A stretch of 60,268 bases of DNA, filler included, from Hausera hauseri (taxonomy: Eukaryota): NCBI GenBank assembly GCA_046269625.1. It is 10 parts of 10 records of this genome, joined end to end, with 100 filler letters (N's around TTAATTAATTAA, not from the genome) between each part and the next. Parts side by side here need not be neighbours in the genome. Positions count along the whole stretch, not along the records: positions 20,700 to 30,159 come from JBJURY010369926.1; 9 more parts are not named here. One strand, 5' to 3'. The notes beneath the pieces were generated by a model that worked only from the letters and a program-made list of their open reading frames with translations, did no database searches and had not been told where the DNA came from. Of this stretch, positions 5,066 to 55,098 are shown piece by piece. Position numbers and translations under genes: made by a program. How positions within the stretch are numbered: the first letter of the stretch is position 1; the number at the start of each line of letters is the position of its first letter.

Positions 5066-5167
5066 GATAGATACGAAGGGCCATACCGAATAGTTAAATT
5101 CCTTACTCCACATCAGGCGGTACTACAATTTCCGAATAGACTGAAACCCAGGCGAATCGAGTGGTAA
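5066..5167 (+). pseudogene. C-terminal tip of a Ty3/gypsy integrase (GPY/F motif), cut by contig start
   Basis: Translates DRYEGPYRIVKFLTPHQAVLQFPNRLKPRRIEW*. Confidence 0.7.
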
Positions 5168-11229: not shown

Positions 11230-12378
11230 GCCCATCCTACACCATACTGCCCTGTTTGTACATATGAAATCAAATATTGTATTCATCATAATGCATACCC
11301 ATCCGATGCCGATCAATCATTACTAGATGCTCAGACCCTTGACGTCATCGAGCCTACGGATCATACTACCTATTACTACACCTGGAATGTATCCACCCCT
11401 TTTTCTATCCCAAATTTCCAATTGCATATGTGTTGTCTATGTCAAAAACCTAACAGAATATCCTATCAATTTAGCTGTTGTAATGCCGAGTATTGTGCTC
11501 ATTGTTACCAACTAGAATCCCATCATCGATATTTAATCTGCAGTATATGTAACTTTTGCCCTCAATTTATTTATGCATATTTCCACCATCCTAGAAGAGC
11601 CCTCCTTACCATCACCAACACACCAATTCCACAGATACTTCCGACAAGATACTTCCGACTAGAACAACAGGCATCAGTTAGAATAGAATTCCCAATTCAC
11701 AAATTTGACCCCTCCATAATAACCAGACTACCACCGATTGTTCTTCAAACACCCTTACCTCACATTAATGTCATGACCCTATTACGACAACCATCTTCAA
11801 TACCACACCCACGCTATCATCCCGAACAAATTACTAGACCATTACCTGAATTACCAGTATCTGTACCTACAATAATACCCACACCAACTATTTCCTATAG
11901 TCCACCATTACCACTATCTCTACGAGAAGATTGGTTCCCTGTATTCAACAAATGTCCAATAGACCTTATTTCTGATCTAGCCCCTCCTGATCTATGGGCA
12001 ATATTGCAATCACACTACTACGACCAGTTTCCCACCTACGAATGCACTATATGTCTAACCGAAAGAATAACAGTGGTTCAATTTCAATGTAACCACCAAT
12101 TGTGTGCAACTTGTTTCAATAAACTTCGATCCCAATCTCTCAAATCAATTGACCCCGAAGATTCTCTTCAAATGACTTTTCAGAACGGTATCTCGTGTCC
12201 ATACTGCAGACAACCATCAGTATACTATCATTTCTCCTATACCTATGACAACAGAACCCAACGATTATGCCATTGGATGAATCCGATAAACGATGCGACA
12301 ATGACAATCAGACCCAGAAATCTCAGCTTCGTCGATGTTTGTACCCAGAGTGATCCGGAGGACCGAATCCTTCCTTAA
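11230..12378 (+). CDS. Multi-RING-finger protein (5'-truncated), terminal ORF of an LTR element
   Basis: Frame open from contig start: CPVC (end of a possible first RING), CCLC..SCC..YCAHC..CSIC, Pro-rich linker, C3HC4 RING CTIC..CNHQLCATC..CPYCR; stop overlaps a PPT. Confidence 0.8.
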   Translation, partial: AHPTPYCPVCTYEIKYCIHHNAYPSDADQSLLDAQTLDVIEPTDHTTYYYTWNVSTPFSIPNFQLHMCCLCQKPNRISYQFSCCNAEYCAHCYQLESHHRYLICSICNFCPQFIYAYFHHPRRALLTITNTPIPQILPTRYFRLEQQASVRIEFPIHKFDPSIITRLPPIVLQTPLPHINVMTLLRQPSSIPHPRYHPEQITRPLPELPVSVPTIIPTPTISYSPPLPLSLREDWFPVFNKCPIDLISDLAPPDLWAILQSHYYDQFPTYECTICLTERITVVQFQCNHQLCATCFNKLRSQSLKSIDPEDSLQMTFQNGISCPYCRQPSVYYHFSYTYDNRTQRLCHWMNPINDATMTIRPRNLSFVDVCTQSDPEDRILP

Positions 12379-16234: not shown

Positions 16235-19200
16235 TAGTTTACGTCGAACACATAAGTTCCGTTGTCAAACTTCTTATTTAGGAAGGTTTCCAATAAGAGG
16301 AATCGTTTGAAGACTATTGCATGATGTAGTGGTGTACTACGTAATTTGGCTTGGAAAATAGCTTGAAATACTTTATTGTCGTAGGCATAGTCGAATATCA
16401 GGATCGCCAAATTATGTCGACCATATCGTATAGCGAGCAGCAGAGGAATATCTCCGTCGACGTTAGGTATATGTAATGGTGCTTGTGATTGGATAAGCAT
16501 AAGTATGAAAAAGTCGTGACACTCGCTCATAATGGCCAAATGAATGATAGTGTTTCCATTTGTGTCTTGGAATTTCAATGCTTCAGCAGCTTTATCGCCT
16601 AATTGGGTTATAGCTTCTCTAGCTCGATCTTCGTTTCCAGATGCTACTGCTAACATTAATGGAGTTGTTCCAGCTTTATTGACTATTATATATTCTACTG
16701 TGTCGGTCGGTTCGTCCGTACATCCCAACATATATCGTTTTGCTCTGGGAAGTATTTGTTCCTTATGTGTTTCAACATAAGGGTAATATTCTTCTTCTTT
16801 AATGTTCGATAGCCATTTTTCATCACCATAAATTTCAAGATCGTAATCCAAGTTGGTCAGAGGAATTTCAAATTGTCTGGTGTAATTGAGTGTTGGTTCA
16901 TGACGGAATAGGTTTCTTTTTCCATGTTTACGCTTGTATATACATATAGCAATAATTGCTATTACAACAAGTATAATAGTAGTGGGTAATACAATTACGA
17001 TTAGTAAAAGTTTGTTGTAATTTGACTGGAGTCGTTGTAACGGCTCAGTTGATGGTAATATAATATTTAATGTTCCATTGTCCTTGGGAGAGTCTGTAGA
17101 TATTCTAAAAACGAATTTTCCTCTTTTCATTATCTCATTGAGTGTAGGAAATTTGAATAGTGAGTTTACTCCCTTTCTGAGTGTAGTGACTTCGAATAGA
17201 GCAACTGTTTTTAATTTTCGTAATGGATCGTAGTGAAGCAATTGAATATGAGCTAGATAGGGATAGTCTGATATCAATTGAGCGCACTCAACATGTGTAT
17301 TAGTAATTAGGAATCAAGCGTCATTTGTATTTTCTAGTGTAACGATAAAGTCAGGATTTGGCAAACTGAACATTATGCGATCAGATCTTACTTGCACATA
17401 GATGTCTAATGGCTTGAGCGGAATCATCTGAATACGTTCTGGAGTTTGTCTTATTCCTGTTATTAAGTAGGGAATTTGATTATGAACTGAATAATGGAAA
17501 CTGCTCAACCAGAAGGTATTTGGACAAGATGATTGTAATTGCAATGTAAGGAGTATTTGTCGATTATCTTGTTTTGTGCATGATATTGGAGGTCTGGGGC
17601 TTGTGACCTCTAAGGTATATACTTCGTCAATATATCGTTTCGCAGCGCATGATAGGGTGTAGCTGACTCGACTGATTTGAGGTGCTACCAATAAAATTCC
17701 TTTTTTATTAAATATCTTTGCTCCGACTCGTTTATTGTCTTCAACCGAAGGGGCGCATGGTATCATTGATGCTTTTCTTTCTATTCCAGTTACTGTACAT
17801 CGCCATATACCATCTATGACACGAAACATGGAGAATATTAATGAGTACTCTTGGTCAGGTCGTGTAAATATGCAAGTTGATTGATTATGTTCTCGGGAAT
17901 AGTGAACATTATTTTGTCCGAGAGTTGTATCAGCATATCGTGTGGTTATTTGCATTACTCTACCTTTTGGGATCTTCCTATCCCATTCAATTGGTAAGCA
18001 TGGTCGTTTATAGTCAGGTTGCCCTATAAACACTCTCTCTTCTAAGAATGATCTATCGATTTTGGTTAACTCTTTCTGTTCAGGTGAATTGTCTGTTAGA
18101 GATAATGTAACTGTTTTGGGTCTTAGTGGTATCATTATTTTGAATTTTCGATCTTCATAGAGGGGTGAATTCCTGTCTTTCGACATGTGTATCTGCACTG
18201 AATAGGCGATTCCGGGCTTAACTTTACAACAATTCTCCCCATACGTGGACGTGGTCGTACATAGCATTTTTTCTTTTCTATAGAGTGTTAACGTACCCCA
18301 ATTTTCGTTCATAGTTTTATTATTGTTTATTTCAATTCGTGGGGTAAATAATTTCAGCGATAAGCACTTTCTCGTATGATTATATTGGATGTATAGGTCT
18401 CCTGGGGTAGTTCCTTGAATATCCCATGATTCTTCCTTTGGAATTCCTTTAAAATACTTCATGAAGTTTGAAAATGTGTCTAGTGATGTCTGGCTAAATA
18501 AATTTGCTGTTCTTGGCACATTTACGGCTGGCTGTGTAGATGAATCTGGTATACAACAAACCAGTATGCTCATTGGTAATAGCATTCGATGAGGTTTTAA
18601 ATCATGTTTAATTCGTGGTGGATGAGTTTTGTTAGGTTTCTTGATTTGTATATGGTTTTTGACATATAGAAATACTACCCATATTAATATGGAAACGAGA
18701 ATAATGACAGGTACGATAATTGTCAATAATAGGTATTCATCAACTTGCCTTGTTGTCGCAATGAGCTTTTGATTTTTTATCAATATCTTATTTTCACCTG
18801 GTATGGTTTGTGGTTCCGTATGAACGTCAAGTCGTTTGCCAGTAGTAGTTATGTGACACAGGGCTATTGTCTTCTGCTGATGTGTTATCTGTACTATGTA
18901 AAGACATTGAGGTTTGAGATTGTCACAGGTAATAGATGTATCCGTAAGTATTGAACACTTGACCGTATCGCCATCGAATGTTATCATATAATTTTTGTTT
19001 GGGAGGTTGAACACGACGTTTTTATCGGTTATTCGATAGGAAATGTTCAAAGGAATAAATCGAATTGTCTGGATATACTCGGAAAGTTGTAAGCCGTCGT
19101 ACGACGCACGCAATGGTGAATTAAGAGCATTACAATAAGTTGTACTAATCCAAAACATATTTGAACATGGAGATGATAGTTGCAAGGTCAACAGTATTTG

Positions 19201-20223
19201 TCTGTCATTGCCTGGTACACAGATTCCCGATGGTTCTATGCTAGAATATTCCATATTATAATCCTCATCATGTGTTAACTTTGCTGTGCATGTTATAATG
19301 TAGGTGACATTTTCTATTCTGGGTATAATTCTTATAATTCCTTTGGAGTTATCTACATCAGCACTTATTGATCGATCGTATTCAGGTGTTAGACGACATC
19401 CATTATTATTATCTTTAATGGGACTGTCCTTTTTAGTTCTTACTCTCATTGGTTTAATAGTTGTTGTTTCTAGGGGTATTTTAACAAGGATGGTTTGTCG
19501 CATGGTAATATTGTAACCGAACCCATTTGATCCTATGGTGATCTGTGATAACTGAAAAGTCAAAGAATAAGCACGTCCTTGAACAACCGAACAACATTTG
19601 TTATCCTTTAACTCTGAATGGGCAACACAAATAGGTCTATTTGCTTCAAACAGTGTCATTACTTCCCTTTCTTGTCCATTCAACCCACTTACATAGGTTA
19701 TCATCAAGCATTTTATCTTGGAATTATAATGGATTGAAAAAACCTTGAACACGAATCGTCGATTATTACTCAAGTCCAAACTCACATTTTCTGGTAATTT
19801 TGAATAGTCTTGATATATAATATGTAATTCTTGTCTTTGGTCAAAATTTGAGGTCAGGGTTTGATTCAAATGAGGTGTAGAAGCTAACTGAGCTAAAACA
19901 TTGGTCATGCATAATGCTAATATACAGGAAAATAAAGTCATTTTGCTAAGATTTGATTGTATTCTTTGGTTTTGATGGTTTACTAAATTACTTTCGGTAT
20001 TTCGTTGATCATTCAATTCAATAAAGCCTTCACTTGAAATGGATCCCGTACTTACTGTAGAATTCATGTTCTGTCTATTTTCAGCAAACGGATCATCTAA
20101 TACATGGTTTGAATTATTCAATTCGGTGGGACTTACGCTAATGATAGGCTCTTCTTCTTCTTCTGTTATTGATTCCAAGTTACATTTATCTTTTGTGGTA
20201 GATTTTGGCAGAAGTCGAAGCAA
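16235..20223 (-). CDS. Large multi-membrane polyprotein: signal peptide - FN3-like Cys modules - TM - signal peptide - FN3-like modules - TM - ankyrin repeats (one in-frame TGA at 17314-17316; 3'-truncated)
   Basis: The 969-aa and 364-aa ORFs share one frame (TNDA*FLITNTHVECAQLISD); hydrophobic segments MTLFSCILALCMTNVLA, YLLLTIIVPVIILVSILIWVVFLYV, MLLPMSILVCC, LLLIVIVLPTTIILVVIAIIAICIY; ankyrin motifs GTTPLMLAV, GNTIIHLAI, GDIPLLLAI, STPLHHAI; no introns evident. Confidence 0.75.
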
Positions 20224-20599
20224 TTTGTCGATATTTTCTTCCGTTCTCTCCCAGGCTTTTTTTATCTCTGGTAGGTCCTCGGAATTTCTTTTCCTTTCTT
20301 AAATAATGCTTTACATTAATTGTATGTATCGACATTTCTATCAAGTACCACTGGTAGGGCAATTTAGTCAACACTATTGCTCTTTGCGGTATTTTAGCTA
20401 AATATTTTATTAAATGTATCTTTTCTTTAGGTAATAAATTTACTTGGGTTAGTCCTAAATAAGCCATCACTCTATTAATCCATCTGGTGCTATAAACTAT
20501 TTTGCTATCTATTCCGTATTTTTGAGCGAGCGAGTCTATTCTCTCATAGTGTAATTGTATTGATCGATAATAAATCTCGAAAGTGCTCGCTCGTGTTAG

Positions 20600-20699: not shown

Positions 20700-21246
20700 A
20701 ATGCTACATGAGTCTGAAAGTACATTTCCTCCATTCCCACAAGGATTTTCCCCAAAACCTTGGATATTTCAGTAAGGAGCAAGGAGAAAGCTTTCAGGAG
20801 GACATCACGGAAATGGAGCATAGATATCAGGGGTACGGCAATGTCAGAATGATGGAAGACAACTGCTGAAATATAAAACGAGATTATATTGTTAGCATGA
20901 AAGGACGCAAATCCATAAACGTACATTTTCACGTGAATAAGTGAATCTTTTGAACAATGCATCAATTTCAGTTCTTTTATTATTCTAGATATATGATGAA
21001 GTGATAGTTAATAATTTTAACTTGTTCTTTGTTGTGTTACAAAAACAAATTAATTACAGCTTGGCCTATTCAGGCACTTGATTGTTGTAACTTAATTTTA
21101 ATAAAACTTGAATGTTTAATATGATTCTGCAAAAAAACTTACGTGATACAGAAAAATGTTTGCCATATTTAGAATCAGCACACAAAAATAATATAGTCAC
21201 ATGAAAATTCAAAACATCAGACACAAAATGAAAATTTGCAGCAGTG
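20700..21246 (+). mobile_element. 3' end of a Chapaev-like (CMC superfamily) DNA transposon
   Basis: MSLKVHFLHSHKDFPQNLGYFSKEQGESFQEDITEMEHRYQG matches the MSLKxHFLHSHLDFFPxNLGxVSDEQGERFHQDI transposase C-terminus; candidate terminus ..GCAGCAGTG at about 21246. Confidence 0.6.
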
Positions 21247-21555
21247 TTTTTTCTACATACAGCTCACGAAAGTCGAAATTCAAATACTGAATATCAGTCA
21301 CGAAAATTGTCTTTATGATCAGGTCATATAAGGGTCGTGTTGGATGTTAATAACATTAAGCAACATGAGTAGAAAATGCAGATCATGGCATTTTCTTAGA
21401 ACCACAGTTTTAAAAAATTCCTTTAATCCTGTGCTGTGGAAGGATTGAAGTACAAATTGAGCAGAATTGTTACGTAGCCATAATATGTTATATCTTCTTC
21501 AAATACCGGATGTAAAGTTGACTGCATTTGTTTTAAATTTCATTGAATGTCCTAT

Positions 21556-23629
21556 TTACCTACTTTCAGAAATCATTGAATTTATTTGATTATATTCTAT
21601 ATCATCATTATCAGGTATACTATACGAGGATTCTTTCATGTCTTTTCTTTGTAGAATTTTCCTTTTCCATAGTGCATCGTGGTTTGCTAAAAAACAACTT
21701 GCTACTGCCGGTATTACAGCTATTAGGACTTTCCATGAGCATCCTACTGCTGCATGTATTCCATATATCTTACCTAGTGCCATAAATACTGTCTTTATGG
21801 TGCTAATAATAAAATATAAAGCCAAAAAACCGGAAGCTGCTTAACCGAAATATAAGAACTTTTCAGACATCTTCTCCATAACGTTTTTGTTACCTTCTTT
21901 AAATAGTCTTTACCCATTAGATTTTCCCATTGTGGTGATCTTTCGCCATCCCACATTACTCTCCTGGTTAATTCTGTTATAACTCTTTGTCTCTGTTCGG
22001 GGAATAATAGCATGCGCCGACAATCTTCTAGATTTTGTTGGGTATAAATTCCTCCCTAAGATATTTCTGCTAACTGTTCAAATTTTTGATTCTTTGCAAA
22101 TTAATTAAACTTAATGTCTCTGGCTTCGGCACTGGCTCTCTTTTTAGCATTCGGATCCATTTGCCATTATCGATTTTAAACATCGGCGACATATTGAAGG
22201 TACAATTATATAGTGGAGTAGGTTTCACGTTAATATCCAATAGTATTCGGGTTACTGGCATCACGTGTCTCGCTTCTGTGTGGTAAACTACTGGTAATTC
22301 CAGTGTACATTCATCCGTTAGTGTAATTGATACCTCTACTTTTTTGCATTCTATTGTTATCAGAACCTCACCCATCACTCGTCCGATAATACCGTCACCG
22401 AAAGGCATTACTGGCGCTACCATATCTGGGTTTGTTATTACTAATGCCATTTTATTACGCATTATTTCGTAATTCAACTTGCATTCGTTCATTACTATTT
22501 CTCGATACAAACCTCTAATTTCCTTCCTTACATAATTAATTAGAAAATCGATCTTATTATCGAAATATTGTGCTAACTTGATATTTTTCTTATTTATTTT
22601 AGTTTTCGCCCCGGGTATTTCTTTTCTCGATAAGAAAATACCCTCATAGTTAGTTTTGATATTTATTCGCTACACTTATTTGCTACTCCCGTGATTTTGA
22701 ATCGCATCATTTCTTCTGGATTTTCCGAATATACAATTGTAGATATCTCCATCATTTTGACTTCTTTTGTTCCTTCTTTATATGTTGCTGTTTCTTTTTT
22801 CGCCGTTTTTCCTACTGCTTTGTTAAACTTTTCTTCCTTTAACAGTGTCAACTGGCATTTACTTGAAGAAGTTTCTCATGTCATTTTTGATTTTCCAGTA
22901 TCACATTCGCCATTATCATATTCGCACTCACTCATCGTCGTCATCAATTTTGTTTGTGAGTCGAATAATCCTTCATATTCTTTCAACTGGATCTGGTAAT
23001 CTTCTATGGCCACTGTTCTAGGCGCGATGGTACCTCCAACGTCATAATCTACTCCCTTACAGGTGCTTCCGTTGTTTTATTTATTAATCCTGCCCTGAAA
23101 ATCCTAGTATATTTTATCCTATGTCGTACTGCAGGTATATGCGCGCTTTGTATAGTTATGATGCCAATCTTAAAAACGTCCTGGCATTCTGCTGGTGATA
23201 TTATTATTGGTTTGAAAGGTGTTGTTGGCTCGATTATGGCCGAATTTCTCGAATAATAAGCACAATTAAACAGGAAAAATGATCCTTTTACGTAACATTC
23301 CCTGATTTTTGCTTTATAAACTCAGATTCTTGGTATACCCAGTATGTAAGCCCACCTGTAGTTGTTAACTGTTCTAGATCGGCCTCTGGACATTTCTTCA
23401 AATCTACTAGGGAGTATTTCTGTCCTTTGCTAGGTTTAGAGCAATCGTAAGCTACTATACCTACAGATTTCGGCATCAATAGCGACGTTATTAGGAGAAT
23501 TTGAAGAATTTCCATCATTGACATACCTGTCATGCCTAGTCTAGAAACGTTTGGTTGCATTGCAGTATGTGTATTTACTAATCTTTCTCGTTCTCCTGAC
23601 CTCATTATATTAGTCATTGGGCTGTTCAA
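21556..23629 (-). pseudogene. Env: chuvirus-type / herpesvirus gB-like (class III) fusion glycoprotein, full length but disrupted
   Basis: Signal peptide then IVAYDCS..YSLVDLKKC; LYREIVMNECKLNYEIMRNKMAL..PD..GRVMGEVLITIECKKVEV..ECTLELPV..PVTRIL..PMFKIDNGKW; GIYTQQNLE..MLLFPEQR; C-terminal hydrophobic ASGFLALYFIISTIK..GCSWKVLIAV. Confidence 0.85.
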
Positions 23630-23746
23630 CCATCCACCTCTACATTGAGCCCAGCTTCCTAGTGTATCCTTTAAAATCTTTAAGGATGTCTTTATATTTC
23701 GTTCGATCTCTTCTAGATTTTGAGTCTGATGATTAATTACTATTAT

Positions 23747-24970
23747 TTAATAGAGCAGGTAAAATATAGCCGTTTGAGCTTTCTCTCGTGTGATCCCTGT
23801 TGCGAATATCTTCTCCAAAATATCTAGCTCAGGCAGTTCGTTTATTCGTTCTTTGTCTAAATTCTCATAGAATTGTCGATTTATTCGCAGCATGCTATTA
23901 CGTAACGTGTTGAATAGTTCGTCGGGAATTATTGTCTGCATGTCAAATGAGGCAAATGACGTATGCCGCCTAGCCAATAAAGTTCTTAGTAATGGATCAA
24001 TATCCACCGATTCGGGTGTGCCATTTGTTCCTGCTAGTAACAAACGTCTTGCTATTTCTTCATTTCTATCTTTCCTATTGCGTATATCACTTATTTTTGT
24101 TCCTCTCGGCCTACCTCTTCTCTTGGTCTCTGTCTGAACTGTGATGTCTTGTGTATCACCCATGGGGTACTCTACTTTCTGCGGTTCCATTTCCCTTAGG
24201 ATATTCTCCACTGTTGTCTGTGCTCTTGCCTCTGGATGTATTTTGGTTATCGTTATTGGATTGTAGTTCTCACTTCTACATCATATTCTCAGTAACTTAT
24301 CGTAATTATATAGTGTTCTTCCATAATAATTTAATCCATAAGGACTATCTTGATAAAAAGTCTCAAACTCCTCAATCTTTTCTCTTAAAGTTTGTACATC
24401 ATCTATTTCGTTCATCCTGATGACCCTCATATCCTGGTTTCCTTCTTTTACCGTTATTCGTATAGCTTCATTCCTGCCTTTCTCATCTTCTGCGGCTTTG
24501 GCCAATACTGTCCTGGCTATTTTTTTGACAGGACTGGCATCTTGGGCTAATAATACCAACTCAGGTAAGATTTTTTTCATTCTTTCTACCGTTACATTAC
24601 TAGTGATTATCTTCAATATCGTGGTAGTCGCTTTATCCACATCGATTATATTACCAGGATCTACAGCCAATACTGCCTGAATGATATCCTCCTCCTCGTC
24701 TAAGTCTACCCCTGGGTTCCTTATTATTTGGTCTAATATAGTTTATCAATATTGGTGTAGCTTGAGGTTCATCTTCGTCCAGTGAGGGTTTACTAAGGTT
24801 ACTCTTCGTTCTTCCTTTTTCTTTTCTTTCACTACCTCTTCCCTCTCTGTTGACGTCTCTCTTGATCCAACCTTTGCGTCAATTATTTTCTTATTACCTT
24901 TCTTCCTTCCTTTATGAGATGCTCTTTTTTCTGGTTGATCTCCTATCATGTATGTATTACTCTCTTTCAA
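23747..24970 (-). pseudogene. Unknown charged/coiled-coil region between gag and env, with an AT-hook-like motif
   Basis: Same-strand ORF fragments 24746-24970, 24281-24670 and 23747-24211; KRRGRPRG motif. Confidence 0.5.
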
Positions 24971-25189
24971 TTTTTGCTGTTGTCTTTTATACTCTTAGTT
25001 CTATTTCCAATTGTTTTTTATGTGTTGAGGTAGTCTGTCATTTATATAATTGACACTTTATTTCTTTTTATCGTTTTTCTTAACTTCTGGTTCGCTATCC
25101 TCCGTTTCATATTCTCTATCCGATGATTCGTCTGACATAGCTGATGTGTGATCCTTCTTTTATTTATTTTTATTACTTGCTTTTGAGGG

Positions 25190-26030
25190 GTCTCCTCTAC
25201 GTGATCTACATGATTTCGCTATATGTTCATATATATATTACAATTAAAACATTTCAATCTTCCTTCGGAATTTATTTTAGGTAATGCCCTTCCATCCTTT
25301 TTGGACCTCTTCTTATAACTCATTTTCTCTCCATCGTTTCGTAGATTAAATCTCACTTTCTTTTCTGTATCTTATTCAGCTTCCGTGGCTGACGTTTGTG
25401 ACGGACTTCTACTTTTTTCATAACGTTGATACTTTTAAGAACTATTATTTCTTCTTCTGTCGTATCCAATGTTATTATAATTAGACTTGTTCCATGTATA
25501 CAGTTCTGTATCTGGTTCGGCCTTTCGCGCCTTTCTTATTGCTTCCTGAAAAGTAGGTGGGTCTGATTGTGAGATTATCGTCCTTAATCTTTCGTCCAAT
25601 CCGTATTGAAATTGAGCTAGGAGCGCATTATTTCTTGTAGTAACGTCTGGATATGCTCTTGGTGCGAGTTTTTTCAATGCACAGACAAATTCTTGGATGT
25701 TTCATCTTTACGTTGCCTCCTTCTTATAAACTCTTCAATTCTCCCCTTTCCAGAGGGATCTATTAAAAACTTTTCAGGCAGTTTTTCTTTAATTCCCTTC
25801 TAGTCCTTCTTGTCTTCATCGGGCATTTGAAAATAAATCATAAGGGCCGTCCCATTTAAATTTATGGGTAATTTTTCCATTCTTTGCTTATCGTCCCAGC
25901 CAAAACTTTTGGAATAGACTTCATATTCTTTCATAAAATCCTGTATATCTTCTTTGCCCGAAAACTCTTTCATCGGTAGGGTGAAATCAGCCTTCGACTG
26001 AATCACCTGCTCTACGTTATGATTCGCCAT
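25190..26030 (-). pseudogene. Ty3/gypsy gag (capsid + CCHC zinc knuckle), disrupted
   Basis: FSGKEDIQDFMKEYE..GWDDKQR..LPINLNGTA; LKKLAPRAYP..QFQYGLDERLR..PPTFQEAIRKA; knuckle KCFNCNIYEHIAKSCR at about 25200-25260. Confidence 0.85.
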
Positions 26031-26157
26031 GGGTTCGTCCTCACTTAAATTTCTTAGATATTCTAGTCCGAAAGGCTAGTCTTTTTGTGGTTGGTAAACT
26101 GTTCCTCTTCTTGTGGTAATGGTGATACATTTTTAATCCAAAGGTCTTCAATCAATG

Positions 26158-26176
26158 ATCCCGGGTCACGGCACCA
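26158..26176 (-). promoter_or_regulatory. Primer-binding site complementary to tRNA-His, just after a 5' LTR end
   Basis: Minus strand ..TTGAACA aac TGGTGCCGTGACCCGGGAT, about 130 nt before the gag ATG. Confidence 0.85.
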
Positions 26177-26960
26177 GTTTGTTCAATCCTCACTAATTAG
26201 ACCAAAAATGATTAATTTCGTAATTTTGCCAATTAATTGGAAAACAATTTTTAGTTATTGTATTTCAAGATTGGGATATCGTGAGCTCTTACCTAGGTGA
26301 TAGTAGGTAATGTGTTACAAGCCAGTAATTTATTTTGTTTCTTACTCACCTAGGGTTTAATATCTTATTTATTTATTTAAATTTAGTTGGGCGGTCGTCA
26401 GGTAGCTTTAACCTGGTCGACCAAAATTCCAAATTTAAACACGCTTAATTACTTATTTATTTTTACTGATTCAAATGAAATATAACTCCAAGAGTAAGGT
26501 GACCAATATAATTAAACCAATTATGAGAATTTATGATACAAATCAAATTACGAGAATACACACTTACGTGAAGTCATTAAAAATATCGTTGTCAGAAAAC
26601 TCAATGTATCAATGTTCAATTCTTTCAGTTCTTGTCACCAATTATATATCCTTTATAGTCAAATTTTATTACAAAATTCACCATGGTCACAAGATAAAAT
26701 AAGACAATCATTAACAGTAATGTCGATGTATGAAACATAAATCGTGAACGATATATACACAATGAGAATAATGTAATTTTACAAATACCAAAAACGACAA
26801 CAAAAGCGGTATAATTACTAATTCAGTTAAACGTCATTGTTTCATACATAATTAATTTGACGACAACAATGTTTCATACATAATTAATTCGCTATTGTTT
26901 TGCTATTGTTTCGCAGTTCACAGATTTGACCGAGTTTGGAAGAAAATTGACCCAAATTTA

Positions 26961-27723
26961 TTAATCTTTCGGGAGGGGCATGTGGATGAATTTGTCGGTC
27001 GTTCTGGATTTGTATCCGATAGATTCAGGTTTGAACACTTTATTATCCACAATAATGGTTTCATCCACCTGGAGATGTCTTTTTCTGCCACACTGAGATG
27101 TAGTTGGTGCTGTTCGCACCCCTTCGGAAGCCGCACTTTTAATTATTAATTCATCAGTCCATTTCACTTGTTTGTACAACGATTGGTAGTACTGCACTAG
27201 GGCAGTACTACGAAGAAGAAACCCTTTTGTATCGTAGAATTTTCTGGCTAACTCTTTGAAAGTGCCCGTCACTAGCTGATACTGGCGAACAATTTCCTCA
27301 TGATAAAGAATGTCGCGGATTCCGGCCAGCCGCCGGATTGGGCATTTGAAATGATTTACTACCATTTCAATGACGTCGGCTACGATTACAATCTTGTCCG
27401 TCAATAATTCAGCAACCTTGCAATAGAAGTCCGGTTAGGTACGTTATGTGCGTATCAAAGTTGTTGATACGCTGTTTTTGGGTGATTATGCCATATAGTA
27501 TCGTGTCCCCGTGCAAAGTCATAATTGATGCCTCGATGGGTTTGAGTTGATTCCATTGGTCATAAGCCAAGTTTACGGCCGCTATGACCATATCACTATT
27601 TGTTATTTTATCGATTCTTCGGAACGGAATACTTTTATATTTAACGTAGTCCGGTTCTGGACGATTGAAGCATTTTCCTTTGGGCAGGCTTGGGCGAAAT
27701 TTCTCTTGCTTTATTATTTCCAT
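26961..27723 (-). pseudogene. Pseudo-DEDDh exonuclease-like cargo domain (split by a frameshift near 27405)
   Basis: IAAVNLAYDQWNQLKPIEASI..ILYGIITQKQRINNFDTHITYLT and KIVIVAD..PIRRLAGIRDIL..TFKELARKF align to the same domain in the 711-aa ORF. Confidence 0.65.
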
Positions 27724-27833
27724 TGCAAAGATAATTCGGTTAGTGTTGGAGCGGATTGTGAATGTGTTTGCGTTAAGAAATGTATGGTCGAAAGAGAGAC
27801 CATGTTCTACGTCCAGGCTGATGAGATCTCCTT

Positions 27834-28247
27834 TTACGGATGTTTTTTATCGGAGGTTTTAACTTGCAGTTGGCCAGTAACACAATAGAGATTCATGGAG
27901 TGAAAACGTTCATGTAGAATCAGTATGTCGGAAAGATAGAAGGAAATAGCCTTTGAAATTTGCATAAGGGCAATCGAACGATTAGCCATACTGTAGCTCT
28001 TTAAGTTATTTGGGATCTGTTGTGTTTGTGGATAATTAAGACTGATTGTAGTATCGTTGTGGCTTCTATAATATTGATTGGAGGGATTTGCGTTTATCAC
28101 GTGATTCTTTGCATTGTTATACCAATGCTTTGATCGGTTAATCGTCTGGATTTGGTGGAACGTTGATGAAGATACTATAAAAAACAAAGTCAATATGATT
28201 CCATACACGGTATTTAGACTCAACACAACGGTTACCATACACATCAC
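27834..28247 (-). CDS. Hydrophobic-leader ORF of unknown function inside the cargo region
   Basis: N-terminal hydrophobic stretch MVTVVLSLNTVYGIILTLFFIVSSS; same strand as the flanking cargo. Confidence 0.35.
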   Translation of the reverse strand: MMCMVTVVLSLNTVYGIILTLFFIVSSSTFHQIQTINRSKHWYNNAKNHVINANPSNQYYRSHNDTTISLNYPQTQQIPNNLKSYSMANRSIALMQISKAISFYLSDILILHERFHSMNLYCVTGQLQVKTSDKKHP

Positions 28248-28360
28248 TACGGTAATCGTTATGGTTAACGTGGGGTGAACTTTTAGACTAAAGAAAACCA
28301 GTGTTATTTGCTTATCTCAGTACTTAGGGTTGCGTTGATCGCAATCCCAATATCTAATTG

Positions 28361-30070
28361 TCAGCTGGGATTGTCTGTATCTAACGGATTCGTTAGATCA
28401 CGCATGTTAATTATAACCCAGCTTTGTCTGCTCCGTTTACATAGCGAGAGCGAGACTTTAATTACTATTATCAATATTACTATCAGCACTATGGGAACTA
28501 ATGATCCGATTAGTATCATCTCTAAATGAGAATGTTTATATGCGGCTCGGGAGGGTTTGCTAGTTACTTTGTTACTACTTGTATTGTTCTTATAATTCGT
28601 TTCACTCTTACGACTCTTCTTTGTAATTGCCGATATTACCTTGGTGGAAGTTATTTTATCGCTATCGTCCAATAATTGTAGAACCACCGTATATCTTGTG
28701 TCAGGGTTTAAAGCTGGGCATGGTGCTATCAAATAATCCGGTGTTATAACTTCCTTTACTACTATTGTATCTTGTTTCTTACAAGTAAATCTAATTTTTA
28801 TAAAATCTAACTCCGGTCTAACGGATATGATTAAAGCAGTCGGAGCTGCTATAAGGGTTACGTTTTCTCATATAGAGCGCTTTTGACGATAATAAGACGT
28901 GTAAGGTCTGACCATAATAGTCATTTCGTTTTTATCGGTCCAGAATTGCACCGCTGGTGTCGTAATCTTTTTCTGTATGTCATCGTATTCCTTTTGATTG
29001 TTAAATCGTATAAACATTGTTGGTCCTATTCGCTCTATTGGGTACTCAAATTTACCGTTCCTTCTCCGAAATAAACGATAATAAACGTGATATATCTTTC
29101 CCGGTGTAACCATACAGCAAACTCGTCGTTGAATACCTTTTAGTCTGCAGACTAAAATTTCTGAATTTATTGTTCCTAATAGTTTTATTGTCATTCGTCG
29201 ATTTTCTTTTAGTTGTATCATCGTTATTATCTCTATGCAACTTCGTCCACTTTTAAATCCCATTGATCTAGCTATCATCTGGTTAAATATTTTTTCATCT
29301 AGTTGAGTTTTGTTCATCTGTTGCCTAGTAGGAATCACTATTAATCTATAAAATTTTGTTTTCCGGCTTTTGTAATAATCTCCTTGTCTCTTTATAAGTT
29401 TAAGATATATATAATGGACACCTGAACCTTGTACCCTGCACTGTGTTTGGTTGGTATCTGGGTGAAATAAGCAGTTATATTGTCGCTCGCTGGGGTCTGT
29501 TTGATTATCATTACACGGTATTATTTGTATCCCCATTATATATATTGGGGGCATTCGTTCTGGTATACTCCAGTTTATCACTTTTTGACCTTTTTCTGAG
29601 TATGTAAATCTGTACTGTAGGTTCTTCATTAATGGGTCTTCTGTTATGGCTATTGCGTGCCGTATTTTTGCTCTTTCAATCTCTTTATTCGTCATTTGTC
29701 TAATCACTTCAGGAAATAACAAGAAGACACTTAATAATAGGTACCGCATTAACCAATGAGATCTATGAGTTGGGTTTACCTTGGCTGCTTTTTCATTAAC
29801 ACTTAGTACTATTTCCTTTTCACCTTTTCTTAACTCGCTTTGTTTGGGAGCCGGCTTGCATCTATTGACGTGAACCTTCACAGATGTATTAGTTTTCATC
29901 AAGCAAACATTCGGTAAATCCACTTTCTCCACTTCATACGGCCCTTTGTAGTGCCTGTCCAACTTGGACGTTTTACCCTTTTTAATTGCAGGTGAGTATA
30001 GCATCACTTGGTCGCCTGCCTTAATTTTTGGTTGTCTGGTTTTCTTATCGTAATACTTTTTATATTTTTT
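28361..30070 (-). pseudogene. Gypsy integrase C-terminus fused in frame to signal peptide - FN3-like ectodomain - TM (one in-frame TGA at 28868-28870)
   Basis: KKYYDKKTRQPKIKAGDQVMLY..SKLDRHYKGPYEV..VHVNRCKP, then WLMRYLLLSVFLLFP, CCMVTPGKIYHVY, CPALNPDTRYTVVL, TM MILIGSLVPIVLIVILIIVI. Confidence 0.8.
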
Positions 30071-30159
30071 ATTAAATTATACATAAATGCCTTTTAGAGG
30101 ACAATAATGTTGCTGGATTCGAACGTTCTAATATTTCGATCTTACTAAGATCTTCATCA

Positions 30160-37012: not shown

Positions 37013-38100
37013 TCAATGTTCTAAACAATAGTCATTCCTTAGTTGCTTTCGATGACGTGGACAAACAAGTAGATGATATACGCAATATAGGGAACGGCTC
37101 CACTTTTTGCAAACGTGACATCTTCGTGCTCGGTTGTGAACAACATTACCAACGGGAAAAATTACATCTTTCACTGGTACAACACATCCCATTTTGGCAG
37201 CAATTTTCTTTAGATCCTGAGATATTGTGCAACGTGGATGGGCCAATCTTTTTTCAATGTAGGACTTTGACAATTGAAAGGTCAACTGAAACAAAAACTG
37301 CTTTCTGTCACCAGAATAATCTCGCTTTCGCATTATTAAGAAAACATTGTAACACGAAACATCTAGAATATTGTAGTGAACAAGCATAGGACATCGCACA
37401 GTTTTTCTACGACATGTAAGGGTTTCTAAACAATCATCCAAACGATCAGCATCACTTTTGGTTCGGTTATCCCTCCTGTTTGTATTTAATGTCCGAAGCA
37501 ATGGTAAATGTTTCTTGAGAAGCTCTGTGACTAATGTATGCGATGTAAAATAACGATAGTTACAATTTCTTTCCCCAATCCATGATACGGTTCTGTCAAT
37601 TGCATTACAATATTAGTGCCTAAGTTTTTGTGCGGTTCCAAACGATTTCCTGCAGAGTGAATAAAAATTTGAAAGCATAACCGGATGAAGATTCACAAAT
37701 CCAAAAAATTTTCAGCCCAAATTGTCTTGGTTTGCGTGGAATGTAAGTTCTTCCTGCTATTCGTCCACTGTAGCCAAGTAACTGTTCATTTACGGTTAGA
37801 GAAAAATCAGGAACATAAAATCTTCTAAGGTTTCCATCGAACAAGGATATCACGTCCCTTACAGCTGAAAGTTTGTCATGTGTCTTTCTTTCTTCTCGGG
37901 TTCTTATGTTATCAAATCTCAAGGTTCTGAGGAAAAATTTAAAGCAGTTTTGTGACATGCATATTCTGTAAAAGGGACGTGCACTGAGAGAATCCCACAA
38001 CAAACTCAAATCATTGAAGTTATCTCTATCAAGTCCTACAGACAACATGATTGCAATACCAGTAATGTATTCATCATAAGAAAATTCACAATAAATATGC
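37013..38100 (-). pseudogene. piggyBac transposase, disrupted
   Basis: MSQNCFKFFLRTLRFD..DKLSAVR..LTVNEQL..YIPRKPRQFGLKIFWICESSSGY; YFTS; DRLDD..TCRRKTVRCPMLVHYNILDVSCYN; C-terminal Cys-rich RRCHVC..VCPRH. Confidence 0.9.
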
Positions 38101-38155
38101 TTATAGTAGTGTAAAAACGTCTGTTCTTTCCCCCCCGGGGGTCGCGAGAGGAATC

Positions 38156-38924: not shown

Positions 38925-41900
38925 GTGTAGCCATATGGCGGGAAAAATCTCGTCACTCATCTGCTAACCCCTCCAGTGCAACCACATTTTAGGTATTACA
39001 TCACCCCCGTGCCAAGATAAAGACTGTAAAGGGAAAAACAAACGCATGTGTCAGGCGTTGGATTCCATCTATAAATTTCTCCCTACTGTAAGTACTAAAT
39101 GTCACATGACGTGATCAGTTAGATGTTTCTGGCGCTTGTGGAGTTGTTTGAGGGAGAGATGATGCAGATTTTGTGGTGTTTTGGGAGGATGTTTTATGAA
39201 GATGTGAAAATGGAGAAGAAACTGAGAAGGGAAAATGGTCACGCGAAGAAGGCGAAACTGAAGATGGAAGCGAATCGTGCGATAAAGGTCACACGACTGC
39301 AGGCTGATTGTGTGGATGTGCAGGCGATGACGGCGAAGTAAGTGGTAAAAGAACAGTAGACGGAAGTGAGCATAACTAATTGTGACGTGTGAACGATTGG
39401 TGCGACGGATCAACATCATCGAGGAAATTGGATGATGGCTCGAGGGGGAAAAAGTTACAGTTAGGATTTGAAACAATGCTGTTATCCTGGTCATCGTCAA
39501 CGAAGAAATCTGGCTTAAGATTAGAAATGTGTACATTTTGAAGTTTGGCCTTTCGTAAAATAGTAGCGGTGTGAGAAGAAAGGTTTAGCAGTGTGTAAGG
39601 GCCAACGTATTGAGGCTGAAAACCAGAGAGTGACGGATCCTTAAGCTACACAAACTTGGCTGAGTATAAGTCCTCTGGAATATAGGATTTGTCTTTATTT
39701 ATAAGAAGGCAAAATGCGTTTGAGTTGATATCTACAAAGTGAGACTGTGCCGCACGAATAACATCATCTGACAGACTTGGATCGAGATTGGAGAGCTCAA
39801 AACGGCACGAATTGGTGTCCCAAAGAGAGCAACAGCTGGAGCACAACCTGTGGTGGTGAATGGCGTGTTGCGCCAACCACGTAGGACAAGCGGAATAATT
39901 GAGGTCCAGTTATGATTGCTGTTTGCCAAGATTTTCAAAGAAATCTTTATGGTGCGGTGAAATCTCTCAAGAAGACCATTTGCTTGGGCATGGTGCGGCA
40001 TCGTATGGAAATGGGCTATCCCCAAGTGATTTACAAGAGATTCAAAAAGGTCAGCTTCAAATTGAGGATCCTGGCCCGTTATGATGTGACGTGGTGAACC
40101 AAAATGGCTGACCCATATCTTGAGAAATGCATCTGCCACAGAGTCGGTGATGGTTGATCGAAGCGGAACGGCTTCCGGCCAGTGAGAAGCTCGATGCATC
40201 ATTGGTAGGTTATATTGATAGCCGTTGTCGGATGGCAAAGGACCCACAAGATCCAAATGAACGGTGTCAATAGAAGACGTGCAAGGAAAGTGATAAAATG
40301 GAGGTTTGAGATGTTAATGAATCACAGTAGGGCACCATGGGCACCACAGTTGACATGCTACACATCCCTTAACCCTGACATGTACATCTGTACACATAGT
40401 CGGCTATACAACATCGCACTGCTGTAGACGAAATATAGCTTTTGAATCCGGATGATAGAGTGAAAGTGATTGAAAGCTGTCTTTGTAGCGATGGAGCAAG
40501 AATGATTTGCTTGCTGGTCGAGTTGGATGTGTCATAAGCGATGCCATCGATGATTTCAACAGATTTAAAAGCTTGAAGAATGTCAGATGATGGCTGATTA
40601 CTTCTTAGGACTTCAGATGAAAAAATTTGCTGAACTGTAATTGAAAAAAATAAACTAAACGTGGATAAGTATGATATCTGTCGTTCTTGTCTCGGCAATG
40701 GATGATTTAACGTCATTATATGAAGTAGAGGCATATGGTCGGTTTGGATGGTAAATTGTCGTGACAGAAGCAAGTGCTTGAAATGCTTTACCGCTAGAAC
40801 TACATCCAAAAGTTCACTATCGAATGTCGAGTATCGACTTTCTGGTTGCGTGAGCTTTCAGGAATAGAATTCGAATGGTTCATCGGCACCATTATATATT
40901 TGGTATAATATCGCACCAGTGGCTGTGGTGGAGGCATTGTAATGAATATTAGTTCCGCGTTGGGTTTTGGAAAGGCCAAAATTTCAACGGTTTTCAGACC
41001 TTCACGAAGGCGATCAAATTGATTTACTAGATCGGAAGTCCAATGGATTAATTGTCTTTTCTTCCCAAATGAGAAGTGTGCAAAAGGTGCCGTTAGTTCG
41101 GAGCAGTGTGGCACGTATTTGTGTATGAAATGCAATGTCCCTCGAAAACTCCTCATATCGGTAGTAGTAGTTGGCAAGGTCACATTTTTTAATTGTTGCA
41201 AACGATCAGGCTGGGGCGAATGCCCTTCGGGGGTACTTATGTGGCCTAAGAAGTTGACGCGTTTCTGGAAGAAATTGCAACTGGCGAAATTAACTTGCAG
41301 GTTGCCTTGACGCAATCTGTGAAAAATAATTCTAAGGTGCTCATGATGTTGTTGGATGGAGCTGTAAGCGACTAATATGTCATCTATGTATGGGTGAGCA
41401 AAATCGAGACCGCAGAAAACGGTGTCAATGTGGCGCTAAAAGGTCTGGGATGAGCTACGCAAGCCGAAAGACATGAAGATGTATTCATAAAGACCAAATG
41501 GTGTGATGGCAGCAATTTTTGGAATGTCATCATGGGCATCAGGAATTTGATGGTAGGCTTTGTGCAAATCAATGGTAGAATAGGTATTGGTGTTGTTGAG
41601 GCTATAAAGAATATCATTAATGAGTGGTAGAGGATAGGCATCTGTAATAGTTAGATTGCTTAATTGTCGATAGTCGCCACATGGCCTATATGTGCCATCT
41701 TTCTTTACCACTTCATGAGGAGGAGAAGCCCAGGGAGAAATCGATTTCCGAATGATGCCAGACCTTTCCAGTTCATTAAATTCCTGTTCCACAGCTTTAC
41801 GTCTGCGTGGCGACAAAGGTCTGACCTATTGTTTGATAGGTCTCTGATGGTCTGTTACTATGTGATGATAAGTTGTGGATAGATGCTTGATATTGACGTC

Positions 41901-43964: not shown

Positions 43965-44850
43965 CGAAGGAATTCAGGGCCGAGTCTTAGGAGAAGTGCT
44001 ATATACATACAAATGTAAACGATTAGACTTACCCCTGATTACTGGTACTCCTTGCTACTCTGAGATACCTGTTAAGTATAATGAAGAAATCCGATACGTT
44101 CAACCGATTATCCGAGTAATTCTGACACCACATACAATACCCACGAAAATTCAAAATTGTTCAGCACTAAATGAACCATTTATTAAGTACGACAATCAGG
44201 ACCTTTGGGTTAGATTACCGGACCGTGAAAGAGTTAAAGAAACACCTAAGAAATTGACGATGGCAAATTTGAAACATGCAATTGAAACCAATATGTTTAC
44301 GGACGTGTCCAAATCCGCATTATACAGCAAAAAAGAAATTGATTCATTCGTGAAGTTTCTAGCATATCCTCGACAGAGAGAGCAAATAGTAAATCGCGGA
44401 ATATACCGGGTAATCGACGACACAGCCGGAGAAAGAAAATGGGACCGGTTATGGACACCTGACGCCTATATTAAAATCGTTTCAAATCTGTGGTATAAAA
44501 TGTGGGGCGGATTCCTGAAATTCGGCCAAGTAGCTTCTGGGTTTCTGGCCATATACTTTATCGTACAAACTTTGAAAGCCTGTATCAATTCCATATTAAA
44601 TGCCTATGAGATTTACAACTTAACGGGACTATCTCTAAGTATAATAGGTGCTCTATTTTGCCCACTTGGTAAAATCATTAAAGCTTACTATGAAAAACAA
44701 TGGCGAGGTAAACTAGAAAAACATGTTGATTATAAATCGAAAAAGCCTTTCCAAGGGATACCCCGTCAAGTTCCGATAACGACAACGCCCCTGGATATTA
44801 TCCTACCACAGGGATTACAAAGGATACAAAAAGAAAATTCAGGTTTATGA
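43965..44850 (+). CDS. Env: C-terminal half of a chuvirus-type / gB-like fusion glycoprotein (5'-truncated)
   Basis: GRVLGEVLYTYKC..CYSEIPVKYN..QPIIRVIL..ALYSKKEID..LAYPRQRE..KMWGGFLKFGQVASGFLAIYFIVQTLK; paralogous to 21556-22510. Confidence 0.85.
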
Positions 44851-48300: not shown

Positions 48301-48900
48301 TATTAACGACATCATACCAATCTCAATGTAATGGTATGATCGAAAGGATGAATCGTACCATTCAGGGTATTCTTTCTACAAAGGTAGCACAGGACCAAAA
48401 AGATTGGCTCAATCATCTGATAACTACGGCTTTCGCAATCAATACTACACCTACCAAAAGTACAATCATTCCCCTTTTGAGTTAATGTTCGGACGAGCGC
48501 CTTTGATGACATTGGATACTGAATTACTGCCATCTTCCTTGTTAAATAGTGATCATATGGATGAACAGTACCAGAATTTGCTTAAACGTCTTGAATAGTT
48601 TCAACGCGAAGCAAAGGAGTTTGAAGAGAACTACAGATCCGGATATAAAAAGCAATTTAACAAAAAATCACGACCACATACTTATAAAATTGGAAATTAC
48701 ATAATGGTCCATTACCCCGCGGCGAAGAAAGGCAAATAGTTAAAATTAACACACACAGGCCAAGGACCGTACAAAGTTGTCGATGTGCGCCCACAAACAC
48801 TTTTTATTCAGAAAGGGCCCGACAAATACGAGGCTGTATCTGTTCAACGAGTAACCCGAGCACCTACTCCATACAACGATTTCATACACGAAACAGATCT
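45380..48900 (+). pseudogene. Ty3/gypsy pol (PR-RT-RNaseH-INT), disrupted
   Basis: MVDTGA; IIEPSQSPW; LDLQSGFWQI; RMPFGL..YIDDILI; YPDFSLPFILKTD..AEQKYS..TDHKAL; HDSHLAGH..YYWP; MDIYGP..VDYF..LLTDR..NGMIERMNRT; GPYKVV. Confidence 0.93.
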
Positions 48901-48949
48901 TGAAATACCCAAAACGGGAAAACCCAAAATAGCAGCAATGCTCAAAATT

Positions 48950-49475
48950 CAACCGATGAGTAACTCAGAGCATTGCCCCGTCCACTTCATTTTTAATAAA
49001 CACTTAGGTATCTTCATCCTCCTGTTCCTCGTTCTCTTAATATTTATTACGGTTGCTGATACCAGCCTAGATACCACAAATACACCATACACTGAATTAA
49101 TTGAATGCGCTACGATTATCAGTATAGATATGCATAAACCCAGTATTTGCCTTCGGACTCACCTGTAATGATACACCACACGGTTGATTTTGTCCTAGTG
49201 TCGCAGCATAACGTCTCTGTTTGCACAATCCTCGAAATGCGTAATAAAACCTGCTGCTACGTCTATTATGTTCGGACATACACGTGCTATGTAATATTGA
49301 AAGTAAACAATACCAATACTATTCTTTGGGAGCCAAATATTATTCTTCACGTCCCTACTTACCGGGAGATGAACTTAGTGGAAACTTCTGATGTATTTTC
49401 GCCAAACCCTTTTATCGCTCGATTCCTGGAATATAATATTGAAATTTCTAATGTCGATCTCACAAGACAACAGTA
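48950..49475 (+). pseudogene. Post-integrase cargo: signal-peptide-like segment and Cys module (3'-truncated)
   Basis: In frame with the integrase tail: HLGIFILLFLVLLIFITVA; after a frameshift VCTILEMRNKTCCYVYYVRTYTCYV, resembling the CC-V..Y module of contigs 4 and 5. Confidence 0.65.
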
Positions 49476-49575: not shown

Positions 49576-50208
49576 AAATATCAGACACAAGACAGACAAA
49601 TGACGCGCCGTGTGCAGAAAACAATACAACATTGATAAAATGTCGAACAACTGAGTGAATAAAAACAGTCACGAGTGTAGGGGAAGGTAAAGGAGGGGGG
49701 TCCTAACGTTGATAATGAAATAAACACAAATATGACTTTGCGACACTAGATCTTCATCAGGTAACAACACACCATGAAACATACAATGAATCCACTTTTA
49801 GCTATCCTCCGGCACCGCGTTTTCGCAGCTCTAAGAACAATAAAAATTTGGAAAAGGTATCCAAGCTCCGCCGGCGGCTTTAGATGACTTCACGTGTCTT
49901 TGTCGCGTGTGTATTATCGAGATTTTGGGAGCTTTGCGCATAGTTTTGTTACATTAGTTTTGTGCTTCAGAATAACATCCCGGGTTAGTGCAAATTATGC
50001 TGGCAAATGTATATAAAAGCTACAGTGATTTTAAGTTTAGTGTGGCTTAACCAAGAGATTAACACGCGGGTATGTATACATAAGTTCATCGCCATCCTCC
50101 GTATTAAAGGATCTTAGCTCAGTTTACGAGCCTTCGTTGCACTGACCTGGACCCAGAATGCGCAGATTTAGCTACTGTATCAAGGGGCTTTTAACGTGTG
50201 CGTCATTA

Positions 50209-50371
50209 CACACGGACTTCGATCTCACTACATGTCAGGGAAATTGTCAGAGCACACAGACTTCGATCTCACTACAGGTCAGGGGAATTGTCAGTGCACA
50301 CGGACTTTGATCTCACTACAGGTCAAGGGAATTGTCAGAGCACACGGACTTCGATTTCATTACAGGTCAGG
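50209..50371. repeat. 44-bp minisatellite, about 3.7 copies
   Basis: Unit CACACGGACTTCGATCTCACTACAGGTCAGGGGAATTGTCAGAG-like, starting at 50209, 50253, 50297 and 50341. Confidence 0.95.
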
Positions 50372-50829
50372 AGAATTTACTGCTAGAGGATACAGGGGAA
50401 ACAGTATGTAGCAGGGTGACTAAATGAGATATGGACATGGCATGTTTGTTTGGCTTCATAAGGCAAACTGGCATGTTTCTGCAAGAAATGTCAGTTGACT
50501 GCAGGAAGAAGTTACCTGACCATTGGCCAACAAAGCCATTCACCTGCACACATTCGGGCTTCTCATTCTGGTCAGATGCAGTTCAAGTTCAGTTTTTGAG
50601 AAAGAACACACAGACTTTTAGTCTGCCACATAGCCCAATGAAAGCCGCAGGTAATACCCGCTGGGTGTTTTGTAGGGTTTTGTTATGATGATGTTCTATG
50701 GTTAATCAATAAAGAGATGGAACAGGACTCCTGACAGGGTTTCCAGAGTTTTTATTGGTGACCCCTGCCTGAAGAACTAATTCTTCCGTGGTCTGGGTTT
50801 GAATGGAGAGAGTGGAAAGTGTTTCAATG

Positions 50830-54984: not shown

Positions 54985-55098
54985 GATGCTGAAAAAGAAT
55001 GAAATAGTATAGCAGGTCGTTTTTAACGGCCTGTTCAAAGAGTAGGTGGTTACTCTTTGACTTTTCATTTGATATTTGTGTTGGTGTAAATCTATTGG

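Follow-up and report, generated by a model that had tools for sequence, protein, structure and literature searches.

The minus-strand frame at 28361-30076 of the Hausera hauseri DNA analysed here (the window, 60,268 nucleotides in full) is best explained as the 3' pol end of a decayed Ty3/gypsy element bearing a gB-type env, in which the integrase runs into a conserved FN3-like single-pass protein. This protein is predicted to be released by signal peptidase and is a candidate attachment factor beside gB. We assign this reading as a whole a probability of about one half.

Layout of the integrase–FN3-like frame

The window is AT-rich, contains many decayed mobile elements and consists of ten short contigs joined by nine artificial spacers; contig 20700-30159 carries the frame of interest on its minus strand. 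Read from 30076, a single frame leads through an integrase tail, a hydrophobic leader, an ectodomain, a stalk and a transmembrane (TM) helix to a short tail. The integrase core is lost at the contig end (30159), and only about the last 78 residues of the enzyme are present, as a GPY/F C-terminal tail of Ty3/gypsy type (29843-30076) whose best phmmer matches are Pol proteins with RT, RNase H and rve domains. From the GPY motif (29936-29944), no stop interrupts the 65 residues to the leader (29699-29764), and tblastn alignments of two database relatives, P0014 and P0026, continue from GPY/F into this segment. By hydropathy, the leader is a predicted internal signal peptide with a basic n-region, a hydrophobic core and an in-frame Met codon at 29747-29749; in the window copy it is weak (hydropathy of 2.28 over 11 residues) and its -1 residue is not small.

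The ectodomain comprises three modules. Module 1 (29327-29659), with a VINWSIP motif, is beta-rich in a low-confidence model. Module 2 (29027-29293), a four-Cys unit that profile and homology suggest is FN3-like, carries the CC-x-V-x-PG-x-x-Y motif as CCMVTPGKIY (29090-29119). Module 3 (28619-28867), the membrane-proximal two-Cys domain, FN3-like by profile and model, carries C..L-x-P-x-T-x-Y-x-V, with LNPDTRYTVV starting at 28711. Both motifs lie in the frame of GPY, so the ectodomain motifs and the TM helix (28448-28516; Kyte-Doolittle 3.43 over 19 residues) pointed out in the sequence-only reading are all present; this helix is the sole confident part of a single-sequence model of the ectodomain. 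A furin-like RQKR site (28877-28888) and an in-frame TGA (28868-28870) precede module 3, the latter dividing the frame into 402 and 168 codons. The integrase is therefore open as far as the leader, as had been proposed, but not through to the TM helix. The stalk (28529-28618) is rich in Ser, Thr and Lys and has N-glycosylation sequons; its S+T+P fraction is 0.37 vs 0.15 in the Pol of the relative P0021, and the stalks of five relatives range from 0.22 to 0.33. A short predicted cytosolic tail (28361-28447) closes with the terminal stop at 28361-28363.

Behind the frame lies a broken 3' accessory gene (26964-28316), assigned by synteny with the related DNA locus L002. It is followed on the same strand by a PBS-like 12-mer (26165-26176), presumably of tRNA-His type, that opens the next element, then by a decayed gag with a zinc-knuckle remnant (25200-26031, approximate bounds from the translation read by eye) and a decayed gB-type env (21634-23521) sharing 29–41% identity with P0021 in the Monjiviricetes_fusion region. 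The PBS-like site, gag, an ORF of no assigned type and the gB-type env (26176 to 21634) are thus arranged behind the FN3-like frame in the order of a tandem or nested pair; a shared LTR of that pair is not shown, since depth falls sharply at 26704-27019. No polypurine tract was found in 26180-28400 by a strict pattern, nor any LTR pair on this contig, which is too short for one.

Unbroken relatives, selection and other copies

A phmmer search with all 571 residues against 1.84 billion representative proteins returned 264 matches, and the 150 of these that were listed all fall within query residues 2-128, with no match beyond residue 128. We read the tails of 45 of the 150 and scanned 16 with Pfam. 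By a fixed filter, the motif is found in 104 of the 150, a tail of at least 200 residues in 11, and two or more hydrophobic segments in 6 of those 11; P0009 was missed by the filter and added by hand, giving seven leader-plus-TM relatives, each a single record and nearly all without a name. In the window copy and all seven, the hydropathy pattern fits a leader and one C-terminal TM, and the integrase–leader junction is open in all seven, as it is in a second element of the window, across spacers of 65–700 residues. In leaders compared by eye, most relatives have a small residue at the presumed -1 site. Modules with C..L-x-x-x-x-x-Y-x-V occur in four of the seven: P0014 (two), P0026 (one), P0021 (one) and P0009 (two clear and one doubtful, with ankyrins ahead of the leader). 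These four proteins, and at the DNA level L002:3-7106, are unbroken frames from integrase through leader, module or modules and stalk to TM. The in-frame fusion expected by the sequence-only reading is thus conserved. Additional searches were weak or empty: a word-indexed protein search yielded 0 of 2744 candidates for the ectodomain-to-tail query, 0 of 682 for the module-2 alignment, and three own members plus P0151 for the module-3 alignment, and viral contigs gave no relative.

The element group is Ty3/gypsy with a gB-type env ahead of pol (GAG-ENV-POL). P0014, P0021, P0026 and L002 have the order PR-RT-RH-IN with a GPY/F tail, and a gB-type env (PF24664) lies upstream of pol in P0021 (E 1.6e-84) and P0136 (E 1.4e-77), in both within one frame; the sequences of P0009, P0014, P0026 and P0002 do not include this upstream part. 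P0021 is one frame of 2855 residues in which the gB-type fusogen (133-813) precedes the protease and the FN3-like protein follows the integrase; the order is env, proteases, RT, RNase H, integrase, another protease, leader, module, stalk and TM. The FN3-like protein is therefore additional to env and not its replacement. It does occupy the canonical gypsy env position after pol, as had been supposed, but as an added gene, the gB-type env being kept before pol. In P0002, P0119 and P0136, unrelated ectodomains fill the same post-integrase leader-to-TM slot (P0002 has one rich in Cys, and a tail with a PPSY motif), so the head appears to be exchangeable, as expected of a host-facing protein. Cytosolic tails are unconserved (19–127 residues), and thus nothing in them points to recruitment of Gag. 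One more aspartic protease of retroviral type follows the integrase in P0005, P0009, P0021, P0056 and L002:3-7106, and two proteases precede RT in P0021 and P0026.

L002 represents the P0009 element as DNA, with 2368 open codons followed by two accessory ORFs, one of which encodes a DEDDh-family exonuclease. The first accessory ORF matches the gene directly behind the window frame (L002:7268-8740 against 28181-27921, E 2.6e-5), so the gene order is conserved too. A further ORF at L002:10906-11517 has no Pfam match and a C-terminal part that is ubiquitin-like by eye. The FN3-like protein is under purifying selection: for L001 vs L002, a single pair from a related family rather than that of the window, dN/dS is 0.24 in the modules (95% interval 0.16–0.37, 251 codons), 0.23 in the stalk and 0.61 in the TM plus tail (interval 0.34–1.11). 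An integrase tree was built from 40 of 151 proteins and two window rows. In it, the four FN3 bearers and three other proteins form one clade (support 100/97) with P0002 as sister; the window FN3 copy is without an integrase core and was therefore not placed. The three other clade members show no FN3 protein in the available sequence (P0012 ends after the integrase, and P0005 and P0056 are possibly incomplete), which suggests that it may be dispensable.

The stretch was found in two public runs, X1 and X2, from two organisms, X1 possibly being the sample of origin, and region 28690-28900 was compared with 113 X1 contigs and 6 X2 contigs. The stop at 28868-28870 is absent from 94% of X1 depth (28 contigs) and from 3 of 3 X2 contigs at this codon, which identifies it as decay of the window copy; a programmed end was rejected. 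Of 69 difference rows 40 were listed, corresponding to 37 sites. Among segregating sites (share under 0.7 among the other copies, a threshold picked after viewing the table), 22 of 28 downstream of the stop are at third codon positions (p 1e-6, listed rows), an excess that disappears if all 29 other rows are non-third (p 0.25). Together with the dN/dS of the related pair, this excess agrees with the dN/dS below 1 that the sequence-only reading had set as a check. Where the window copy departs from most others, the nine sites fall 2/4/3 on the three codon positions, as for neutral decay. Among the 12 of 65 indels listed for the whole contig, none falls in 28364-30076. None of the X1 and X2 contigs listed spans GPY to the leader, and the public runs listed with the stretch include no RNA run.

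The second junction of the window belongs to a distant decayed element (48632-49475, plus strand), recognised by sequence comparison. As had been noticed, its GPY is in frame with a leader (48764-49060, plus), but the element shares only 26% identity with the first (150 columns, E 2.7e-8), and its TCCYVYY (49249) is in a different frame behind two stops, so that the same junction in another copy of one element is not what is seen. Its CC motif scores weakly, as the best non-training match (iE 0.24), and its integrase core forms a long, unsupported branch in the tree. On its contig (43965-49475), tblastn gives the pol order PR-RT-RH-IN, with a gB-type env ahead (43966-44847, plus; PF24664, E 6.5e-38). 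A related element at 16237-20298 (minus), also found by sequence comparison, carries the leader-modules-TM unit twice in tandem, both units sharing a frame with one in-frame stop (17314-17316). Directly behind the TM of its second unit are ankyrin repeats, predicted to be cytosolic, which would give this unit a receptor-like build; the repeats matched generic ankyrin proteins and no specific donor.

Additional pieces of the window were recorded alongside these elements. A third GPY tail (5066-5300, plus) is followed by a hydrophobic run in the same frame with several stops between, and a RING-like remnant lies near 9070-9170. An open frame of 382 codons (11230-12375, plus) encodes a RING finger and further Cys clusters, and is likely the cargo of such an element. 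A 717-codon frame (52936-55086, minus) without a Pfam match is a relative of the two 3' accessory ORFs in L002 (E 1e-7 and 3e-6), and fragments related to it lie at 26964-28316 and 6849-7700. The window also contains a piggyBac-like transposase remnant (37016-38153, minus), an unrelated gypsy pol (39735-41894, minus), a 44-base tandem repeat (50202-50421) and a low-complexity open frame of 1662 codons without a Pfam match (55199-60184, minus).

Fold of the ectodomain modules

A module profile built from database proteins only found its best match among 402 six-frame window chunks at 28816-28649 (15.3 bits, iE 3e-4), whereas its best reversed-sequence match reached 7.4 bits. With the same profile, none of 300 shuffles scores as high as module 2 (7.8 bits) or module 3; for module 1, 170 of 300 do. 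With a six-row profile of module 3, all 33 matches among PDB sequences contain FN3 (best E 6e-4; labels partly assigned by protein name), and an AlphaFold2 model from the same six rows is all-beta, with pLDDT 66.7 and six strands by DSSP. Its VIA-align neighbours are animal FN3 proteins in 47 of 50 rows (Z 9.8, rmsd 2.4 A, 83 of 90 residues). Foldseek matched it to FN3 domains with probability 1.0 and TM scores of 0.6–0.7, at a best E of 0.006 and none at 0.001, and viral FN3 proteins match similarly. Since the rows were chosen for the motif, these profile and model tests are not fully independent; an Atlas search with the single module 3 is, and it gave 0.92 to an fn3 cluster (recognition 2527). 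The C, L and Y are invariant in all six module rows, and the motif aligns with that of Tie2; we take L-x-P-x-T-x-Y to be the FN3 tyrosine-corner motif. No match to Pfam fn3 (PF00041) was found for any of six modules at E up to 10, hence module 3 is FN3-like by fold and not a Pfam fn3 member. With moderate confidence, we regard module 3 as a predicted FN3-type beta-sandwich.

Modules 1 and 2 may be FN3-like as well. Module 2 has two homologues among the modules of the element at 16237-20298 (z 7.1 and 4.8), but the comparison of the module 2 and module 3 families by hhalign is not significant (E 0.095), and no meaningful PDB match was obtained for module 2. A single-sequence model of the ectodomain (pLDDT 39.6) places seven strands in module 1 at low confidence, the Atlas lead to fn3 is 0.88 for residues 127-402 together, and Pfam gave nothing credible for the ectodomain. 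The suggestion of beta-sandwich modules thus fits module 3, whereas module 1 is without a module-profile score. An unconserved fusion or modules that do not fold as beta-sandwiches had been named beforehand as evidence against the sequence-only reading; what we found is a conserved fusion and a sandwich model for module 3.

Processing, function and known systems

The polyprotein would thread the ER membrane in the order cytosol, first leader, gB, TM, cytosolic PR-RT-RH-IN, second leader, FN3 head and stalk, TM and tail. Since the chain would re-enter the cytosol after each leader-TM pair, Pol, and the ankyrins where present, would be cytosolic, and gB and the FN3 head lumenal. The hydrophobic segments of P0021 (131, 697-725, 2486 and about 2722) show the alternation expected of a threaded polyprotein, and the element at 16237-20298 has the pair twice. 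Signal peptidase is predicted to free the FN3-like glycoprotein, as suggested by hydropathy and by the (-3,-1) residues compared by eye; the viral protease would trim the integrase, and gB and the glycoprotein would be made one to one. In the least secure step, the variable FN3 head on its glycosylated stalk would tether particles or producer cells to targets, and gB would then fuse them.

Attachment of the particle or the producer cell to target cells, to which we give slightly less than an even chance, is favoured over a receptor decoy because of the head-on-stalk build, the exchangeable head and the co-translation with a fusogen. The unconserved tails, the apparent dispensability and the host-manipulation cargo count against it: ankyrin, exonuclease, RING and extra-protease cargo neighbours the FN3 gene, which fits host manipulation equally well. 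Also against an attachment partner, the related fusogens of class III in rhabdo-, baculo- and chuviruses are not known to need one. Processed in the same way, the protein might be a mimic or decoy of a host receptor on the producer cell, dampening immune or developmental signalling or blocking superinfection. We consider this possible but rather unlikely. Cytokine receptors (IL-22R1, IFNAR) and receptor phosphatases are among its closest neighbours in structure, at tied Z values that do not discriminate, and the cytosolic ankyrins right behind one TM at 16237-20298, those before the leader in P0009 and the L002 exonuclease downstream point the same way, as do the apoptosis and ubiquitin modulators carried by Burro elements (PMC6431247). 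However, most tails are short and share no common signalling motif, and the head-on-stalk build and co-translation with gB suit attachment equally.

An origin of the glycoprotein mainly from a spliced or subgenomic RNA with its own start, which would make the open integrase junction incidental, appears improbable to us: an in-frame Met does open the hydrophobic core in the window copy and lies close to the leader in several of the relatives, and the ORF3 of an LTR element is typically a spliced unit of its own (PMC5408684), but the junction is open in every leader-plus-TM relative and in the second window element despite the wide range of spacers, and an internal leader is already used for gB (P0021, P0136; PMC6431247). 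That the ectodomain is a divergent second fusogen of class II is very improbable, and a class II remnant was rejected. The leader, the furin-like RQKR, the sequons and the TM are env-like, domain III of class II fusogens has FN3 topology (PMC9094657), and one weak Gn-Gc row (E 0.1, rank 42) appears in the structural search; yet P0021 and P0026 have a single module of about 100 residues on a stalk, far too small for class II or III, the number of modules varies from one to three or more, and no Pfam fusogen matches. The earlier view of a non-fusogenic surface protein is upheld by these small heads and by the lack of a fusogen family match. Chance read-through or an assembly chimera with a host gene has a negligible probability: the repeats were assembled into short contigs, none of those listed bridging GPY to the leader, but the same junction in independent database proteins and in L002, together with the L002 downstream synteny, refutes it, and the multi-copy family in two organisms and the selection argue likewise.

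If the attachment role holds, a lineage of invertebrate endogenous retroviruses might encode a two-glycoprotein envelope in one polyprotein, with a gB-type fusogen before pol and a captured, exchangeable FN3 attachment protein that decides which cells are entered; we put this forward tentatively, with the odds against it. Such a division between attachment and fusion is described for no LTR retroelement in the literature searched. Outside Drosophila, the route of env-bearing Ty3/gypsy elements into new cells is an open question, and a conserved, selected, modular surface protein beside a gB-type fusogen is a candidate for cell targeting or immune evasion. With internal signal peptides, an LTR element could insert two membrane proteins and keep the Pol between them in the cytosol. 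For annotation, a leader-plus-TM frame after the integrase is not necessarily env.

Errantiviruses with an HSV/gB-type env and GAG-ENV-POL order are reported from Nematoda, Bryozoa and Platyhelminthes (PMC13524379). They share with the elements described here the Ty3/gypsy pol, the gB-type env before it and an ectodomain flanked by leader and TM, but the portion of that source available to us describes no second glycoprotein after the integrase: fibronectin and ankyrin have no mention in its main text, nor fibronectin, FN3 or ankyrin in seven text supplements. For most of the elements surveyed there, the mechanism of reaching new cells is said to be elusive (PMC13524379). In the planarian giant retroelements Burro/GYPSM1, a mononegavirus-glycoprotein-like env is in frame between gag and pol, within an internal region of up to 25 kb and one ORF of about 4,900 residues from Gag to integrase (PMC6431247). 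Both have env ahead of pol and a long polyprotein with cargo of ankyrin and RING type, ankyrin and RING being present in related pieces here, whereas the accessible parts of the Burro report name no FN3 or post-integrase type I protein (PMC6431247). Burro elements measure 25–30 kb (PMC6431247), compared with window contigs under 10 kb and a longest related protein of 3243 residues. The other Burro cargo, namely BIR, MATH, BCL2 and dUTPase-like domains, had no Pfam match in the 35 proteins scanned whole, from elements that are incomplete and with a method less sensitive than HHpred.

Bdelloid rotifer LTR elements likewise carry non-env genes after pol, including TM proteins and DEDDy exonucleases (DEDDh in L002), but as separate ORFs, and the text available has no mention of fibronectin or in-frame (PMC5408684). 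In the planarian nidovirus PSCNV, one polyprotein, for which processing by signal peptidase is predicted, contains fibronectin modules, a Thr/Ser-rich region and ankyrins, proposed for host interaction; PSCNV is an RNA virus with fibronectin type II and not III, which makes it an analogy and not a homology (PMC6211748). Cellular FN3 proteins (Tie2, EphA2, LAR, IL-22R1, fibronectin) share the fold and the L-x-P-x-T-x-Y of module 3, but at 9–28% identity, below Pfam fn3 detection and without its extra Cys pair, and the donor is not identifiable. The literature searched (including PMC6211748, PMC9094657, PMC11410931 and PMC11952523) yielded no account of an FN3 membrane protein fused behind an integrase. 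Allowing that Repbase entries might annotate it, we provisionally regard the post-integrase FN3 glycoprotein as new, on an element of known type (GAG-ENV-POL, gB-type errantivirus, Burro-like).
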